Under the pieces are notes generated by a model. The model was not told where the DNA came from. It made no database searches and saw nothing but the letters and a program-made list of their open reading frames with translations. Position numbers and translations under genes: made by a program. 64,000 bases of DNA from an uncultured bacterium. GTDB lineage: Bacteria > Armatimonadota > Hebobacteria > CAIYQO01. This document shows, in pieces, positions 5,017-60,772 of this stretch. Location of the stretch: positions 5,680 through 69,679 of the forward strand of contig CAIYQO010000302.1 in the NCBI GenBank assembly GCA_903928345.1, given 5' to 3'. Numbering within the stretch: the first letter of the stretch is position 1; every line of letters starts with the position of its first letter.

Positions 5017-5096
5017 GGTGCCGAATCAGGTTAACGACAACTTTGAGAGGGCGAGCGTACCCGCGAGCCGCGTCGGATGCACCGTTGTGAAAAGCG

Positions 5097-5148
5097 GAGA
5101 CGGCCTGTGCGTGTGAACAAATCGCACGTACAGGCCGTCTCTTTTTTT
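5097..5148 (+). terminator. Rho-independent terminator, likely bidirectional, nested inside an 18-nt outer inverted repeat.
   Basis: 12-bp perfect stem gagacggcctgt/acaggccgtctc followed by T7. Outer IR gcgagcgtacccgcgagc at 5051-5068 and 5171-5188. Confidence 0.65.
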
Positions 5149-5205
5149 ACCCACACCCGCCTCGCCCGTAGCTCGCGGGTACGCTCGCGCTCCCAAGTCA
5201 GGCAG

Positions 5206-6150
5206 TTACGCCTCCAGTACCGCCATCTCCCGCTCGCGGAAGTAGGTGGCGGTTTGCTGCACCAGGTGGCGCAGCAGGGCGGGGTCGGGTTTGCCGTGCA
5301 TGGCGGGGTACGGGTCGCCGCCGGGACCGAGGGGCTCGGGGGTGACGTAGCAGCCCGGGCGGTTGAAGCCGATAAGGTAGAGCACCATAATGACCGTGTC
5401 GATGTCCAGCGCGCCCTCGCCCAGCGCGCAGCGGTTGCTGTCCGCCAGGTGCAGGTTGGCGAGCATCGGCCCGGCGTCGAGCAGCGCCATGCCGAGGTGG
5501 CTCTCTTCACTCTGCATATGGTACAGGTCGGCGTTGATGTGCTGCACGCCGGGGTGGTTCAGCGCGGCGATGTACGTCTTCGCGTCGGCAATGGTGTGGC
5601 AGAAGCTCACCTCGGCGGAGCGGATAGGCTCCACGGCGCCCTGCACGCCCGCGGCGACGAAACGGTCGGCCACCAGGCTCAGCGTGGCGATGGAACGCTC
5701 GAACTCGGAGTCGTCATACGGGGTCGGGCGGCCTACCGCGCCGGGCACCACCAGGATGTACCCCGCCTTAACTTCGGCGGAGAAGTCGATGGTGCGCTTC
5801 AGGTAGTCCACCGCCGCCTGCCGCGTCAGCCCGCTGTTGCTCGAGAGGTCGCTCTCTTTGGAGAACATGCCGCAGATGCCCCCCACGGTGATGCCGTGCT
5901 CCGCCAGCACGCGCAGCGTCTCCGCCGGCTTATAGCCCAAATCGGCGCCGTAGTGGTTGCCGTGCAACTCGATAAAGCGGATGTCCGCCTCCGCGAGCCG
6001 CGCCGCCGACGCCGCCAGCGGCTCCATCCCGAACCCCCAGTTGCTCCACGACAGGTTCAGCCGCGCCCGCAACCGCCCCGGCTCCTGCGTCTTCAACAGC
6101 GCAAAGCGCGCCCGAATCTCGTCATTCTTCACCTGAAAATGCTGCTTCAT
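5206..6150 (-). CDS. Sugar phosphate isomerase/epimerase (xylose-isomerase-like TIM barrel).
   Basis: 314-aa ORF with TIM-barrel sugar isomerase-like blocks (IELHG...GITVGG...HLADSN). Confidence 0.7.
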   Translation of the reverse strand: MKQHFQVKNDEIRARFALLKTQEPGRLRARLNLSWSNWGFGMEPLAASAARLAEADIRFIELHGNHYGADLGYKPAETLRVLAEHGITVGGICGMFSKESDLSSNSGLTRQAAVDYLKRTIDFSAEVKAGYILVVPGAVGRPTPYDDSEFERSIATLSLVADRFVAAGVQGAVEPIRSAEVSFCHTIADAKTYIAALNHPGVQHINADLYHMQSEESHLGMALLDAGPMLANLHLADSNRCALGEGALDIDTVIMVLYLIGFNRPGCYVTPEPLGPGGDPYPAMHGKPDPALLRHLVQQTATYFREREMAVLEA

Positions 6151-6198
6151 CCCGTTTCTCCTCTGTGAAAATCTGTGAAATCTGTGGTTTCTCGTCCT

Positions 6199-7209
6199 CT
6201 ACCGCCCGTAAATTTCCTTGCTCAGCGCGAAGAACTCCTCGCACATCGCGTCGATGGCGGCGCGGGTGTGGCCGGCGCCGACGGGGTCGGTGTACCAGCG
6301 CGGGATGAGCCCGCCGGCGGGACGGCCCAGCGTCTGCGTCATCCGGCGGGCATAGGCGCGCACCTCCGGCAGCGAGCGCTGCATGCCCATCTGGATATCC
6401 ACCCCGCTGAAAAAGGTCAGGCGCCCCCCGAAACGTTTCCCGAGCAGCTCGAGGCCCATATTCTCCTGCTGGTCCATGTGGACGACATCCAGCCCGATCT
6501 CGATAAGGTCGTCCAGGATGTCCACGATATAGCCGCAACTATGCAAAAACGTGCGCAGGCCGCGCGCGTGGGCGGCAGCGAAGACGCGCGCATAAGCGGG
6601 CTTCCAGATTTCGCGCCAACTCGTCGGGGAGATCATCAACCGGTTCTGCAGCCCCCAGTCGTCGCAGAAGATCAGGGCGTCCGCGCCGGCAGCCGCGAAC
6701 TTCTCCACCGCGACCAGGTTCATCTCCACCAGGATATCCAGCAGCGCCTTCAACTCGTCGGGATACTCGTAGATATCCGTCCAGGTGTTCTCCAACCCGC
6801 GGATGAAGTGGATGCGCTCGTACAGGGAGACGCCGTAGGAGAGCAGAAACTTGTCCCCGGCGCGCTCGCGGGCACCCTCGAGGGCGGTCCAGCGCGACGG
6901 GTCGTGGATGTCGGGGATGTGGAGCTTGTCGAAATCCGCCCAGTCGAGCAGCGGGTAGACCTTCACCTCGCCGAGTTGCGTGGTGCCCAGATTCTCCCAC
7001 ACCGCGCCCCATTCGTCGGTACCGCTGGCCGGGCGCCCGTCGGGGCTGGGACTCATGCCCATCCCGGCAAAGTCGCTGCCGTAGGGGTCGGGAAAGTCGA
7101 AGGGGAAGCGGTCGGGCCCGGAAAAGGTGATCGCGGCGTGCACCACCTCGCGGCTGGTCATCATGGCGGAGTCTCCCATTGCGAAACTGCGCCGATGGTA
7201 ACAGCGCAC
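6199..7209 (-). CDS. URO-D family protein, second paralog.
   Basis: 336-aa ORF with URO-D-family architecture (LIFCDDWG, FFSGVD). Exact start uncertain (several in-frame Met). Confidence 0.6.
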   Translation of the reverse strand: MRCYHRRSFAMGDSAMMTSREVVHAAITFSGPDRFPFDFPDPYGSDFAGMGMSPSPDGRPASGTDEWGAVWENLGTTQLGEVKVYPLLDWADFDKLHIPDIHDPSRWTALEGARERAGDKFLLSYGVSLYERIHFIRGLENTWTDIYEYPDELKALLDILVEMNLVAVEKFAAAGADALIFCDDWGLQNRLMISPTSWREIWKPAYARVFAAAHARGLRTFLHSCGYIVDILDDLIEIGLDVVHMDQQENMGLELLGKRFGGRLTFFSGVDIQMGMQRSLPEVRAYARRMTQTLGRPAGGLIPRWYTDPVGAGHTRAAIDAMCEEFFALSKEIYGR

Positions 7210-7282
7210 GCGACCGCCGTCAAGGGGGATTACGGTTGCAGATTGGTTAGCAAGCGACTGTTTAAATTACCCAACCCTCGGT

Positions 7283-7288: not shown

Positions 7289-7320
7289 AGCTTTCCCTGG
7301 CGGGGAGAAAGAGCTTGGAG

Positions 7321-8769
7321 ATGTTGAAACAGGAGTTTGTGAAGATCACGGAGCAGATCTTCGAGGTGCCGGTGACGTATCGCGCGGGAATGCGCGTGCC
7401 GGCGCGGGTGGTGGCGGACGAGCGGATTTTGGAAGCCGCCCTCGGGGACAATTCGACCGAGCAGTTGGTGAACACCACCATGCTGCCCGGCGTGGTGCGC
7501 TACGCGCTGGCCATGCCGGACATCCACCAGGGGTACGGGCCGCCCATCGGCTGGGTGATTCCCATCGACGCCGCGACGGGCGTCATCTCCCCCGGCGCCA
7601 CGGGGTACGACATCAACTGCGGCGTGCGCCTGTTGCGCGCCGAGGTGGAAGCCGACGAGGTGGTGCCCTTCATGGACGGCCTGGTGCGCGCGCTCTTCAA
7701 CAACGTGCCAAGCGGCGTGGGCAAAGGCGGGGCACTGCGCCTCTCCGACCACGACATGGAAGGCGTGCTGGAAGACGGTGCGCGCTGGGCGGTGCGCAAA
7801 GGTTACGGCGTGCAGGAGGACCTGGAGGTTACCGAAGAAGGCGGCGCCATGCCCGGTGCCGACGCGACGACGGTCAGCCCCTCCGCCAAAGCGCGCGGGC
7901 GCGACCAACTCGGCACGCTGGGCAGCGGCAACCACTTCATCGAGGTGGGCAAGGTCACGGAAATCTTCGACCCCGCCATTGCGGAGGCCTTCGGTCTCTT
8001 CGCGGGGCAGGTGGTGGTGTGGATTCACTCCGGCTCGCGCGGGCTGGGGCACCAGGTCTGCACGGACTACGTGAAGCGCATGCAGAAGTCGGTACGCGAC
8101 TACGATATCACCCTCCCCGACCGCGAGCTGGTGTGCGCGCCCTTCACCTCCCCGGAGGGGCAGGAATACTTCGCGGCAATGGCGGCGGCGGCCAACTTCG
8201 CGTGGGCCAACCGCCAGGCGATGGCGCACCTGGTGCGCCAGACCTTCGACGACGCGCTGGCCGGCAAGGTGCGCCGCCGGGAGTTGCACCAGCTCTACGA
8301 CGTGACGCACAATATCGTAAAGCGCGAGACGTACGAGATCGACGGCGTCGCGCGTGACCTTATCGTGCACCGCAAAGGCGCCACACGGGCCTTCGGACCG
8401 GGGCGCGTCGAAGTGCCGCGCGCCTACCGCGCCGTCGGGCAGCCGGTGCTGGTGCCCGGCAACATGGGCACGGCGAGTTACATCCTGGTAGGCACCGAGA
8501 CAGCGATGACCACCACCTTCGGCAGCGCCTGCCACGGCGCCGGACGCGCCATGAGCCGCTCGAAAGCGCTCAAACAGGTGGACGGCCACATGCTGCAGGA
8601 GCGGCTGGCCCGCGCCGGCATCGTGGTGCGCGGCGGCAGTTGGGACGGCCTGGCCGAGGAAGCCCCGGAGGCGTACAAGAACGTCGACCTCGTGGTCAAC
8701 GTGGTGCACCAGGCCGGCATCGCCCGTAAAGTCGCCCGCACCGTGCCCCTCGGCGTCATCAAGGGGTAG
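7321..8769 (+). CDS. rtcB: RNA-splicing ligase RtcB (3'-phosphate/5'-OH RNA ligase).
   Basis: Hallmark motifs MPDIHQGYG, GYDINCGVR and GSGNHFIEV. The listed ORF begins at a TTG (7315). The ATG at 7321 aligns with archaeal and Thermus RtcB N-termini. Confidence 0.9.
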   Translation: MLKQEFVKITEQIFEVPVTYRAGMRVPARVVADERILEAALGDNSTEQLVNTTMLPGVVRYALAMPDIHQGYGPPIGWVIPIDAATGVISPGATGYDINCGVRLLRAEVEADEVVPFMDGLVRALFNNVPSGVGKGGALRLSDHDMEGVLEDGARWAVRKGYGVQEDLEVTEEGGAMPGADATTVSPSAKARGRDQLGTLGSGNHFIEVGKVTEIFDPAIAEAFGLFAGQVVVWIHSGSRGLGHQVCTDYVKRMQKSVRDYDITLPDRELVCAPFTSPEGQEYFAAMAAAANFAWANRQAMAHLVRQTFDDALAGKVRRRELHQLYDVTHNIVKRETYEIDGVARDLIVHRKGATRAFGPGRVEVPRAYRAVGQPVLVPGNMGTASYILVGTETAMTTTFGSACHGAGRAMSRSKALKQVDGHMLQERLARAGIVVRGGSWDGLAEEAPEAYKNVDLVVNVVHQAGIARKVARTVPLGVIKG

Positions 8770-8826
8770 CGAAAGGTCGGTTCGCTTACGGGAATCTCTC
8801 CTAGACGCGGCCCCCCACCACCCTGA

Positions 8827-8998
8827 CCCCCTCCCCCGTAACGTCCTGTGACAGGGGAGGGGGAATCGGAATAACAAGTGTAGGCGCAGGCTTTAGCCTG
8901 CGATAAGTACTGGTACCGCTTGCAATATCGAGCGCAGGCTGAAGCCTGCGGCTACATTTTCTCCCTTCCCCCCTCACAGGACGTTACGGGGGAAGGGT
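8827..8998. repeat. Composite palindromic element: two inverted copies of a ~38-nt hairpin module flank two REP-like units GCGCAGGCTnnnAGCCTGCGGCTAC.
   Basis: Hairpin cccctcccc/ggggagggg with loop gtaacgtcctgtgaca (8827-8864) and its inverse cccttccccc/gggggaaggg with loop ctcacaggacgttac (8963-8998). Between them are gcgcaggctttagcctgcg (8883-8902) and gcgcaggctgaagcctgcggctac (8932-8955). Confidence 0.6.
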
Positions 8999-9125
8999 CG
9001 GGGATGGGGGGGCGCGCCGACAGGCGCGGAACCGCAAAGTAAACCGGATTGGGTAGCGCCATATTTTAGTTTTTAGCTTTTGTCTTGCATGATAGCCGCA
9101 AGGGATGTCGAATACAGAGGTTGTT

Positions 9126-9452
9126 ATGATCACCTACGACAAGGGCACATTGCTTATCGACCGCGCGCAGGAAGGCGAGGATGTCCATCCCTTGCTGGAG
9201 ACCGGGCGGACGGAGCGCTGGTTTCTCGAGTTGCGCATCACCGAGCAGGCGGCGCTGGAATACCTGATCGACGCGGAGATCGTCGGCGACGACATCCCCG
9301 TGCGCTACATCGCACGCGACGGGCAAAGCTTCACCGGCATCGCGCAGGTGGAGGAATCCCTCTGCGCCGACGAGCAGAAGCTCTTCCTCCTCCGCGGCTA
9401 CGGCAAGCCCCCCGCCGTCTTCCTGGCCGACAGACCGGATAAAATGGGGTAA
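9126..9452 (+). CDS. Hypothetical small protein (~108 aa).
   Basis: ORF 9105..9452. The ATG at 9126 has a GAGGT RBS 5 nt upstream. An AT-rich promoter-like stretch lies at 9060-9100. No recognisable domain. Confidence 0.4.
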   Translation: MITYDKGTLLIDRAQEGEDVHPLLETGRTERWFLELRITEQAALEYLIDAEIVGDDIPVRYIARDGQSFTGIAQVEESLCADEQKLFLLRGYGKPPAVFLADRPDKMG

Positions 9453-10384: not shown

Positions 10385-10491
10385 TGAAAAATGAAAATTG
10401 AAGAGTGAAAAATGCAAATTCCCGGTTCTCGGATACCGCATTTTTCATTTTCAATTTTTCATTTTCCACTTTTCATTCCAAAGGACCTATC
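10384..10491. repeat. AT-rich heptamer-repeat palindrome between etfB and etfA: TGAAAAA-like x5 then TTTTTCA-like x6.
   Basis: gtaATGAAAAATGAAAATTGAAGAGTGAAAAATGC ... GCATTTTTCATTTTCAATTTTTCATTTTCCACTTTTCAT. About 30% GC in a ~70% GC genome, with 7-nt periodicity. The two arms are reverse complements. Confidence 0.55.
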
Positions 10492-11694: not shown

Positions 11695-11706
11695 AGCAGC
11701 GTAAAT

Positions 11707-11810
11707 TTGGAGTGCGGCGCGAAACGCCGCTTTCACTGGCACCGTTCTTCCCCTCGCTACGGTGAGGAAGGTCGAGACCAACGAAAGCGGCGTTTCGCGC
11801 CGCACTCCAA
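11707..11810. terminator. Large bidirectional hairpin with 28-bp perfect inverted repeats between convergent genes.
   Basis: ttggagtgcggcgcgaaacgccgctttc (11707-11734) is the exact reverse complement of gaaagcggcgtttcgcgccgcactccaa (11783-11810), with an inner sub-hairpin. Confidence 0.55.
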
Positions 11811-11830
11811 AACACCATCGAAGCGCGCTT

Positions 11831-46598: not shown

Positions 46599-46608
46599 AG
46601 CCGGAGAA

Positions 46609-46686
46609 GGCGGGACAGCCACCACTTTTCCGCAACTAGCGTGCAATAACGGAGCCCGGGGTTGGAAAAGTGGTGGCAGTCCCGCC
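46609..46686 (+). terminator. Long hairpin (26-28-bp near-perfect inverted repeat) after the LptD-like gene.
   Basis: ggcgggacagccaccacttttccgcaac ... gttggaaaagtggtggcagtcccgcc (2 mismatches), 24-nt loop. Confidence 0.5.
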
Positions 46687-46708
46687 TTTCCCGGGGTATG
46701 AGGTGACT

Positions 46709-49319: not shown

Positions 49320-49328
49320 GGGACGGGA

Positions 49329-49482
49329 ACCGCAAAGACGCAAAGAGCGCAAAGAACACGCAAAGAGATCGCGTAAGGGCCGGGTGGAAAATCGGCAGCC
49401 CAATCTGTTTGGGTACCGATCTTGCATCCGGCCCTTTGCCAATCCCTTCGCGGGTCCTTTGCGTCCTTTGTGTCTTTGCGGT
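49329..49482. repeat. Complex multi-stem palindromic element with GCAAAG / CTTTG direct repeats. Bidirectional terminator-like, between the amidohydrolase and darA.
   Basis: ccgcaaagacgcaaagagcgcaaagaacacgcaaagag ... gggccgg...ccggccc ... gggtcctttgcgtcctttgtgtctttgcgg. The right arm is related to 12958-12992. Confidence 0.5.
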
Positions 49483-49491
49483 TATTCCGTC

Positions 49492-50462: not shown

Positions 50463-50630
50463 GTACTCATTGTAGCCTTGCCGCCCGGCGGCGTCAAGGC
50501 GAACGGGAGCAAGGGGGAGGGCCGGGTGAGCCGGGCATTCACCAAGCGTGCTTGATCTTCCACCCGGCCCTCCCCCATTCTCCGACCGCAGTTGCACGAC
50601 GGGCGGAATTCCGGTTACAATGCCGCGCGT

Positions 50631-59472: not shown

Positions 59473-59590
59473 AATCCCATTACCTCAAATCCCATTGAAA
59501 ATCCATGCAATTATACGTACCTACGCCGTCGCGGTCAAGGCCGCCTCACGCCGGGATGTCCGCCGCAGTGCGAGGTGGAGTCAACACCGG

Positions 59591-59666
59591 TAGCCGCAGG
59601 TCTTCAGCCTGCGCCATGTGCCGGTGCCGGAAGGAAGATCGAACGCAGGCTAAAGCCTGCGGCTAC
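59591..59666. repeat. Two REP-like GCAGGCT-NNN-AGCCTGC-GGCTAC palindromic units, one of them inverted. Same family as 8883-8955.
   Basis: gtagccgcaggtcttcagcctgcgc (59591-59615, inverted orientation) and cgcaggctaaagcctgcggctac (59644-59666). Confidence 0.55.
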
Positions 59667-59680
59667 GTTCAATCGCCCCG

Positions 59681-60772
59681 TCACTTGCTGCCGAAGCAGA
59701 AGATCGCCCCGTCGCTGGTACCGAGGACCAGGCGACCCTGGGCGATGGCGGGGGAAGCTTTGATCTCGCCGCCGAGGGTAAAGTGCCAGATTTCCGCGCC
59801 GGTGTGCAGGTTGAGGCCGTAGAGCACGCCGTCGCCGGAGCCGGCGTAGACCGTGGCGCCGGCGATGGCGGGCGGCGCGTCGGTGCCGCCTTTCAGCGCA
59901 AACCGCCAGCCGATCTTCCCGGTATCCCGATGCACGCCGACGACCTTTTGCCCCTGCGTGCTGAACACCACCATCTCCCCGTCCACCGCGGCGCCGGCGT
60001 AGCAATTGCCCAGGTTCTCCTCGTTGGCGATGCGCCATGCCACACCGCCGGTCTGCGTGTGCACGGCCAGGTATTCCCCCGTCAGCGCGCCGACATACAC
60101 CGTGCCGTCGGCATAGGCGGGGGAGGCGGCGAAGTTAGTGCTCTCCAGCGCCACATGGGTGATCTGCTTGCCCGTCGCCAGGTTAATCATACGCACCTTG
60201 CCGTCGCAGCCGGCGATGACCACCGCGTTGCCCGCCACGCACGGAGAGCAATGCACCTGCGCGTCCGCCTTGAACTTCCAGCGCGGCGTGTGCTTTTTCA
60301 GATCGAGGCAGTACAGCGTGTCGTCGTAGGAGCCCACCAGCACCACGCCCGGCGCCGGGGTAGCCGAGGAGATGATCTTATCTCCCGTTTTGAAGCGCCA
60401 CAGCCGCTTGCCGGTGGCGCAGTTCACCGCGTGAAAGACCCCGTTCTCGTCGCCCACGTACACCGCGCCACCCACCACGCACGGCGAGGCGGCAATGGAG
60501 GAGCCGGTGGTGTATTTCCACTTCAGCTTGCCCGTCTTCAGCCCGATCGCCAGCAGCGCGCCGGTGGTGGTGCCCACGTAGACGGTGTCCCCGACGATAG
60601 CCGCGGTGGACTCCACCCCGGAGCCGGTTTCATATGTCCACAGCACCTTGGGCACCGGCGGCAACGCGCACCCCGCCACGCCGGTCATCGCCGCGTTGCC
60701 GCGAAACGACGCCCAGTCGTCGGCCAGCGCCGGCGAGAGGAGGAGGAGGGATATGAGAAGGTATTTCAGCAT
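59681..60772 (-). CDS. Secreted PQQ-like beta-propeller repeat protein (BamB-like).
   Basis: Signal peptide MLKYLLISLLLLSPALA. Repeated GxVYxGxxDGxLxAxDxxTGKxxW blades. Confidence 0.7.
   Translation of the reverse strand: MLKYLLISLLLLSPALADDWASFRGNAAMTGVAGCALPPVPKVLWTYETGSGVESTAAIVGDTVYVGTTTGALLAIGLKTGKLKWKYTTGSSIAASPCVVGGAVYVGDENGVFHAVNCATGKRLWRFKTGDKIISSATPAPGVVLVGSYDDTLYCLDLKKHTPRWKFKADAQVHCSPCVAGNAVVIAGCDGKVRMINLATGKQITHVALESTNFAASPAYADGTVYVGALTGEYLAVHTQTGGVAWRIANEENLGNCYAGAAVDGEMVVFSTQGQKVVGVHRDTGKIGWRFALKGGTDAPPAIAGATVYAGSGDGVLYGLNLHTGAEIWHFTLGGEIKASPAIAQGRLVLGTSDGAIFCFGSK

Follow-up and report, generated by a model that had tools for sequence, protein, structure and literature searches.

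The window, by which we mean the whole 64-kb stretch of DNA that was analysed, carries an rtcB gene (Pfam RtcB match, E 8e-171) whose stop at 8769 is separated from the ATG of the next ORF at 9105 by a 335-nt gap, just as the sequence-only reading had placed it. A compound palindrome of ~206 nt (8810–9015) lies inside this gap. The ORF that follows the element (9105–9452, 115 aa) and a 363-aa ORF upstream (5077–6168) gave no Pfam match. The features discussed below are as follows:

7315..8769, plus strand: rtcB, the upstream gene, whose 3′ untranslated region contains the composite (context only)
8810..8862, no strand: left arm of the outer inverted repeat, 53 nt, including the local C-rich hairpin 8827–8863
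8876..8959, no strand: REPIN 1, a head-to-head doublet of REP units (arms 8876–8902 and 8933–8959)
8880..8902, plus strand: REP unit A, GTAG-G-CGCAGGCT-TT-AGCCTGCG
8933..8955, minus strand: REP unit B, GTAG-C-CGCAGGCT-TC-AGCCTGCG on the minus strand
8963..9015, no strand: right arm of the outer inverted repeat, 53 nt, including the local hairpin 8963–8997
59590..59666, no strand: REPIN 2, a head-to-head doublet (units 59590–59613, plus, and 59644–59666, minus)

The predicted RNA fold of 8800–9030 is a single long hairpin (−160.3 kcal/mol, z −13.3), and the predicted DNA fold of the same stretch reaches −87.7 kcal/mol (z −12.3). The outer arms, 8810–8862 and 8963–9015, are 79% complementary and are centred on REPIN 1 to within 5 nt, with unequal linkers of 13 nt on the left and 3 nt on the right. 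The left arm holds the hairpin CCCCCTCCCC / 16-nt loop / GGGGAGGGGG (8827–8863; −13.8 kcal/mol as DNA, z −3.6) and the right arm its mirror image, CCCTTCCCCC / GGGGGAAGGG (8963–8997). A left hairpin of ~38 nt together with its exact inverse had been proposed earlier; the left hairpin is there, whereas exact inversion is limited to a 20-nt core, TCCCCCGTAACGTCCTGTGA (2 matches vs 0.02 expected), within the more diverged 53-nt repeat. Three positions of the outer stems differ between the arms, and since each of them is compensated within its own arm, each local hairpin is intact.

Enclosed by these arms are two mutually inverted units, GTAGGCGCAGGCTTTAGCCTGCG on the plus strand and GTAGCCGCAGGCTTCAGCCTGCG on the minus strand. 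The two inner palindromes of the earlier description are thereby recovered at 8880–8902 and 8933–8955, with a loop of 2 nt (TT / GA) instead of the 3 nt given there. The 27-nt arms of REPIN 1 are 89% complementary and lie 30 nt apart; as single-stranded DNA the doublet folds with −28.2 kcal/mol (z −6.7) and the single units with −8.5 and −8.8 kcal/mol. On the plus strand, unit B is followed by ATTTT, and a terminator scan flagged this right-hand unit with GCTACATTTT (2 found, 0.7 expected) as the sole terminator-like site in the gap, the C-rich hairpins having no T run.

The second doublet and the GTAG-type REP class

The sequence-only reading had also reported two further copies of the palindrome at about 59591–59666, one of them inverted, and these are indeed present as the two units of REPIN 2, of which the plus-strand one (59590–59613) carries one extra stem base. 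The REPIN 2 spacer of 29 nt is identical to that of REPIN 1 at 18/29 positions, and the repeat match between the two doublets extends over 68 nt at 78% overall. As the spacers are homologous between both sites, the doublet, not the single hairpin, would be the copied unit. REPIN 2 lies 15 nt past the stop of a beta-propeller gene (59681–60772, minus strand) and upstream of a promoter-like site for dnaJ; it is without outer C-rich arms. Both doublets follow closely on a stop codon, and the genes on either side are co-directional. Within the 64 kb, the REP copies thus amount to four units at two sites 50.7 kb apart, all extragenic. The pattern GCAGGCTNNAGCCTGC with up to two mismatches gave 3 matches in the window vs 0.40 expected, a number reached in 0/100 shuffles.

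All four units begin with a 5′ GTAG, followed by one unpaired base and then the stem, in agreement with the unpaired GTAG or GTGG of REPs. They are GC-rich and 23–24 nt long, their stem counts 7–8 bp (6 bp for the one with the bulge) and their loop is a 2-nt TY; length and stem fall within the REP range of 20–40 nt and 6–13 bp. At both sites they form the foldable inverted pair of the class (two units within ~130–150 nt), with GTAG outside and a 29–30-nt spacer. Published GTAG REPs have a GTAG tag, a 6–13-bp stem and a TY loop, form dimers 20–100 bp apart in which the HH layout (GTAG outside) is favoured, lie past coding regions between co-directional or convergent genes, and flank RAYT genes (PMC3733652, PMC3116915, PMC6006769). 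Judged by sequence, 8876–8959 is classed as a REPIN/BIME doublet of GTAG-type REP, and 59590–59666 as its second copy. A CRISPR array was considered and rejected, the units being inverted and not direct, two per site, with no tandem array.

The proposal of a dispersed REP-like family holds, and the family can be narrowed down to a GTAG-type REP associated with RAYT transposases. The clustering of copies as higher-order palindromes had been called unusual; the standard layout of REPs is an inverted pair with GTAG on the outer side (PMC3733652, PMC3116915), and among neighbouring pairs of the GTAGCCGCAGGCTTYAGCCTGCG family in other genomes we counted 36 HH vs 14 TT and 9 HT, so the higher-order palindrome corresponds to the normal arrangement. 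What is unusual is the outer C-rich inverted repeat alone, and REP dimers within longer palindromes have a precedent of their own (PMC3733652).

With the REPIN/BIME and RAYT systems of E. coli (yafM) and P. fluorescens SBW25, the window family shares the GTAG tag, the GC-rich hairpin, inverted doublets and a short spacer (PMC3116915, PMC2817692, PMC3479197), as well as a position past stop codons, RAYT genes that in other genomes have the family's own units beside them, the HUH and Tyr motifs and the 4ER8 match; it differs in the REP sequence and in its uncultured host. The REPs of Haemophilus influenzae, GTAGGGTGGGCTTYAGCCCACC, and Thioalkalivibrio, GTAGGTCGGCCTTCAGGCCGAC, have the GCTTYAGC or CCTTCAGG hairpin tip with a TTYA loop, as in the window REP (PMC2817692 Table 1), and the same layout of GTAG, 1–2 unpaired bases, a 7–8-bp stem and a TY loop, but the stem sequence differs (PMC2817692). 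The exact REP sequence had no match in a literature search or in the supplements of two REP surveys; it may be identical to one of the 24 published GTAG families (PMC3733652).

Family spread and association with RAYT genes

We scanned one genome per species (596 Gb, two strands) with the pattern GCAGGCTNNAGCCTGCGGCTAC, which has 20 specified bases, and found the GTAGCCGCAGGCTTYAGCCTGCG unit in at least 120 genome stretches, compared with ~1 expected by chance. Among the stretches listed, the record titles give at least 16 phylum-level labels, which are taken from MAG records and may include some mixed bins: Nitrospirota, Chloroflexota, Desulfobacterota and other “delta” groups, Thermodesulfobacteriota, Ignavibacteriota, Bacteroidota, Pseudomonadota, Verrucomicrobiota, Bacillota, Acidobacteriota, Planctomycetota (including the isolate Limnoglobus roseus PX52), Armatimonadota, Omnitrophota, Aerophobetes, Spirochaetota and Cloacimonadota. 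Most carriers are uncultured sediment and groundwater lineages. RAYTs adjoining identical REPs have a mutual identity of only 35–43%, and this divergence shows that the hosts are truly different lineages. The exact 22-base REP is also present on 21 IMG/VR contigs (L126–L146), once as a doublet (L135); such contigs may stem from proviruses or from host DNA wrongly called viral, or they may be a vehicle of horizontal spread. The window-family 22-mer is common to many phyla, whereas classical REPIN-RAYT systems are portrayed as confined to single lineages and passed on vertically (10.1101/2021.07.10.451892).

Beside the exact units we found partner hairpins in which head and loop are alike and the stems are swapped: GTAGCCGCAACCTTTAGGTTGCG, ...CACCCTTCAGGGTGCG, ...CAAGCTTTAGCTTGCG and ...CGGGCTTTAGCCCGCG. 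In a set of 30 distinct units, picked solely by the head GTAG[CG]CGC and the loop TTYA, the stems covary: 93% of cells are paired, and 27 double changes were counted against 5.8 in column shuffles (0/500). Slid registers, used as a control, left only 21–39% paired.

One MAG contains a tandem array of a heterodimer of GTAGCCGCAACCTTTAGGTTGCG and the REP with a 95-nt period (L038, 147–404) and, at another locus (L120), a shorter tandem repeat made up of the REP and flanking sequence. In a Caldimicrobium MAG (L106, L114), a second GTAG REP class, GTAGGGGC-stem-GCCC, occurs in many stem variants interleaved with the GTAGCCGCAGGCTTYAGCCTGCG REP, so that one genome carries two families. In deltaproteobacterial MAGs (L007, L078 and L095; in part L104, L117 and L059), the REP has as its direct neighbour, 4–5 nt away, a GT[AG]G-tagged hairpin, (G)GT[AG]GCACAGGCTTTCCAGCCTGTGC, and at several of these loci the pair lies within a shared outer inverted repeat, ATACCNNNTTGCAGTC ... 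GCGCAACTYGGTAT, as a recurring nested composite. At a minority of loci (L003, L130, L137, L142, L143 and others), a single REP is found 5–30 nt upstream of a ribosome-binding site and start codon, with its GTAG-first orientation towards the gene. A preference for such positions was considered and set aside: a crude count gave 16 units before starts in this orientation vs 8 in the opposite one and 61 (39 + 22) beside gene ends, which dominate as expected for REPs.

No RAYT gene was detected within the 64-kb window by tblastn with four real RAYTs as queries. Elsewhere, tblastn with a RAYT query identified Y1-transposase-like genes near the motif in 4 of the 120 loci listed (L055, L086, L048 and L066). 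In L055 the RAYT gene (6824–7264) is bracketed by REP doublets, and unit A of the window is identical at 23/23 positions to a unit adjoining this gene. The L086 gene (7320–7808, minus strand) lies between inverted units at 7289–7312 and 7809–7832, and in L048 a unit lies 20 nt from the RAYT start codon. A RAYT also adjoins a unit in L072, where the gene is cut by the locus end; in L066 the distance is greater, ~1.4 kb. The NCBIfam model for REP-associated tyrosine transposases, NF047646, has a cutoff of 80 and gave the proteins of the tblastn loci 83.5, 82 and 96.8 bits, with L048 at 68.2; 3/4 passed the Pfam Y1_Tnp cutoff of 23 bits, with L048 at 19.8. Their sole PDB match is 4ER8, E. coli TnpA-REP, and an alignment of eight RAYT sequences shows no variation in the HUH histidines, WQ and YxxxNPVR.

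A protein search with the L086 RAYT returned 861 matches at E ≤ 1e-10, many of them named “REP element-mobilizing transposase RayT” by JGI. As a test independent of the motif, we took four homologues of this protein (54–61% identical), chosen by protein similarity on long contigs. In three of the four (L167, L168 and L169), an exact REP unit lies no more than 30 nt from either end of the gene, and the two flanking units are inverted in L167 and L169.

Origin and possible role of the outer arms

The C-rich loop has no other copy with up to two mismatches in the window and the 120 REP loci (~1 Mb), and blastn-short with word size 7 likewise found no second C-rich module in these data. A 22-base C-rich pattern gave 0 matches in JGI metagenomes; a 17-mer gave 16, none of them within a C/G-rich stem and hence attributable to chance, as are three IMG/VR matches of a C-rich 16-mer. 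The outer arms therefore appear to lie outside the mobile unit, given that no other copy was seen and that REPIN 2 is without them, and they would be locus-specific as far as is visible in the data searched. The 38-nt hairpin is not a dispersed family in the data searched. The absence of further copies or of conservation in relatives had been named as a sign of a chance local palindrome; this absence applies to the outer hairpins and not to the REP units. Two similarities within the window were discarded. The alignment of the outer arm with a G/C-rich hairpin at 50506–50583 scores 20–22, inside the window-wide background (top 28), and a 3′ stretch of rtcB that resembles the arm (70% over 27 nt) is coding sequence found also in a relative, and was taken as chance.

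Five other one-off long intergenic palindromes were noted in the window. The one at 5043–5196 is a 26-nt, 92% inverted repeat around a separate hairpin (5090–5148) that resembles a terminator and has a T run. At 10385–10468, between etfB and etfA, there is an AT-rich palindrome of GAAAAT-type repeats, and after etfA, at 11706–11811, one with 46-nt arms, each with the small hairpin GCGGCGCGAAACGCCGC. The palindrome at 46601–46694 precedes the gene at 46670 and has 31-nt arms (90%). The last, 49328–49483, is a near-continuous 156-nt hairpin with 76-nt arms (78%), a 4-nt loop and GCAAAGA-like repeats in the arms; no other copy of it was noticed. Long hairpins that occur only once seem to be typical of the intergenic regions of this genome.

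We read the rtcB locus as a mobile REPIN doublet nested in a locus-specific 53-nt palindrome, and estimate the probability of this overall explanation at roughly 0.78. Most likely, a GC-rich palindrome already existed 3′ of rtcB and the REPIN was inserted at its single-stranded apex. This order is favoured by the unequal linkers and by the outer arms being more diverged than the inner ones, and it matches both the one-off palindromes of this genome and earlier reports of REP dimers with a longer palindrome around them, namely Anabaena variabilis GTAG-15, Thermomicrobium roseum GTAG-23 and Halothiobacillus neapolitanus CGTC-1 (PMC3733652, Di Nocera 2013). As at the rtcB site, a REP dimer there occupies the centre of a longer unrelated inverted repeat; in those three families, the enclosing palindrome recurs with many dimers, whereas the rtcB palindrome was seen once and the second doublet is without it.

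The same geometry would also arise if the outer repeat postdated the REPIN, the nascent strand having folded back so that a single C-rich hairpin flank was copied in inverted form. Growth of the palindrome outward from the REPIN by such template switching is less likely than insertion, and we consider it unlikely in absolute terms. The centring of the arms on the REPIN to within 5 nt speaks for it, the one-off palindromes at 5043–5196, 11706–11811 and 49328–49483 would suit a genome prone to such events, and template-directed correction within hairpins could yield the compensated changes without selection. Against this stand the 13-nt and 3-nt linkers and the 79% complementarity of the outer arms, lower than the 89% of the REPIN arms, and direct evidence for the event itself is lacking. 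A lower probability still is assigned to the whole of 8810–9015 being the repeat unit, with a REP and an unrelated stem-loop in each arm and the composite moved as one piece by a tyrosine transposase, in the manner of the “double palindromic” inverted repeats around some RAYT/TIRYT genes. There are precedents: P. putida and P. fluorescens carry REP-plus-stem-loop arms by the hundred, and S. maltophilia has self-complementary TIR repeats (PMC3733652). At the P. putida ppf607 and P. fluorescens pfs4255 tyrosine transposase genes, an arm combines a REP with an unrelated self-complementary stem-loop, as at the rtcB site (PMC3733652), but those repeats exist in hundreds of copies and flank the transposase gene, whereas the rtcB site is a single copy with no gene inside. 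What keeps this reading alive is the three compensated stem differences, which preserve the local hairpins as in a covarying hairpin family, so that the outer arms could be members of an unseen repeat family, and the parallel with the deltaproteobacterial loci (L007, L078, L095), which repeatedly show a REP heterodimer enclosed by a common outer inverted repeat. It is opposed by the bare REPIN 2 and by the single occurrence of the C-rich module across the window, ~1 Mb of REP loci, IMG/VR and JGI metagenomes.

Two further readings leave the REP units aside or make them latecomers. The outer 53-nt arms might be the terminal inverted repeats of a DDE-type miniature transposon that received the REPIN later, and long inverted repeats around a short non-coding interior are what such an element would have; of the classical MITE features, only the inverted repeat is present, with neither multiple copies in the data searched nor a target-site duplication at the ends (CTAGA/CGCGG ... 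CGCG/CCGAC, slashes marking the ends), and no transposase is found nearby, which makes this the least credible of all the readings. Scarcely more probable is that the region encodes a structured RNA of its own, which could be an sRNA or could regulate rtcB or the downstream 115-aa ORF in cis, with the repeats incidental. Its very stable predicted fold, its position between two co-directional genes and the terminator-like right REP unit would fit. Yet Rfam 15 gave 0 matches at the gathering threshold over the whole window, and with permissive E-values 8700–9150 yielded only sub-threshold microRNA/snoRNA-like noise (best local match 21 bits vs a threshold of 71); no promoter-like site was seen in 8600–9300; the inner units are found in hundreds of unrelated contexts; and rtcB-bearing relatives have other neighbours and no such sequence. 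The nearest other RtcB is 71% identical (Armatimonadota MAGs) and sits in the synteny metG-archease-rtcB-LamG, unlike the window, with no REP in the region downstream of rtcB. The suggestions of an sRNA or a binding array made in the sequence-only reading thus find no support. In that 71% relative (L121, 5456–5581), rtcB is directly followed by a long inverted repeat, GGCTCAGGGACTGTCCC ... GGGACAGTCCCTGAGC, of unrelated sequence.

RAYT or TnpA-REP proteins are HUH-Y1 enzymes related to the IS200 transposase. On the established picture of TnpA-REP and IS200/IS605 enzymes, a RAYT binds a folded single-stranded hairpin, reads its 5′ GTAG, and cleaves and rejoins via a covalent tyrosine intermediate. 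On the preferred reading of a REPIN nested in an older palindrome, we infer how mobilisation would have proceeded in this genome. The doublet would be a non-autonomous element, and because a RAYT recognises the GTAG hairpin, one encoded elsewhere in the genome would have copied it into both sites, such copying to new extragenic sites presumably occurring at a low rate. The REPIN may then have landed in the single-stranded apex of the palindrome 3′ of rtcB, although this order of events is a guess. If co-transcribed with rtcB, the ~206 nt would fold as one long hairpin, which could plausibly act as a 3′-end barrier, attenuator or terminator between rtcB and the next gene.

The locus itself is of little import, as it belongs to a known element class, and we propose that the rtcB element be annotated as a REP doublet in the 3′ untranslated region and not as a new RNA or binding array. 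The one point that might merit follow-up is that the family is spread over many phyla with its sequence unchanged. To our knowledge, REP-RAYT systems have been characterised almost exclusively in Gammaproteobacteria. More tentatively, and with the odds somewhat against it, GTAGCCGCAGGCTTYAGCCTGCG may belong, with its RAYT clade, to one REP-RAYT system found across at least 16 phyla and on predicted viral contigs, the 22-nt substrate having stayed constant while transposase identity has fallen to 35–57%. On that view, the nested rtcB palindrome would show a REPIN preference for the single-stranded apex of existing hairpins. If true, this would imply repeated horizontal spread of the REP-RAYT pair or extreme constraint on a 22-nt DNA substrate, and would conflict with the view of REPIN-RAYT as lineage-specific and vertically inherited. 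An unchanged REP with an identifiable RAYT clade offers a test case for horizontal movement and for enzyme constraint on the hairpin.

Many of the RAYT homologues (P0121–P0240) lie on contigs of ~0.7–1.3 kb, roughly the gene plus its flanks. This size fits short-read assemblies breaking at the flanking REPs, and serves as a warning that REP repeats break metagenome assemblies.
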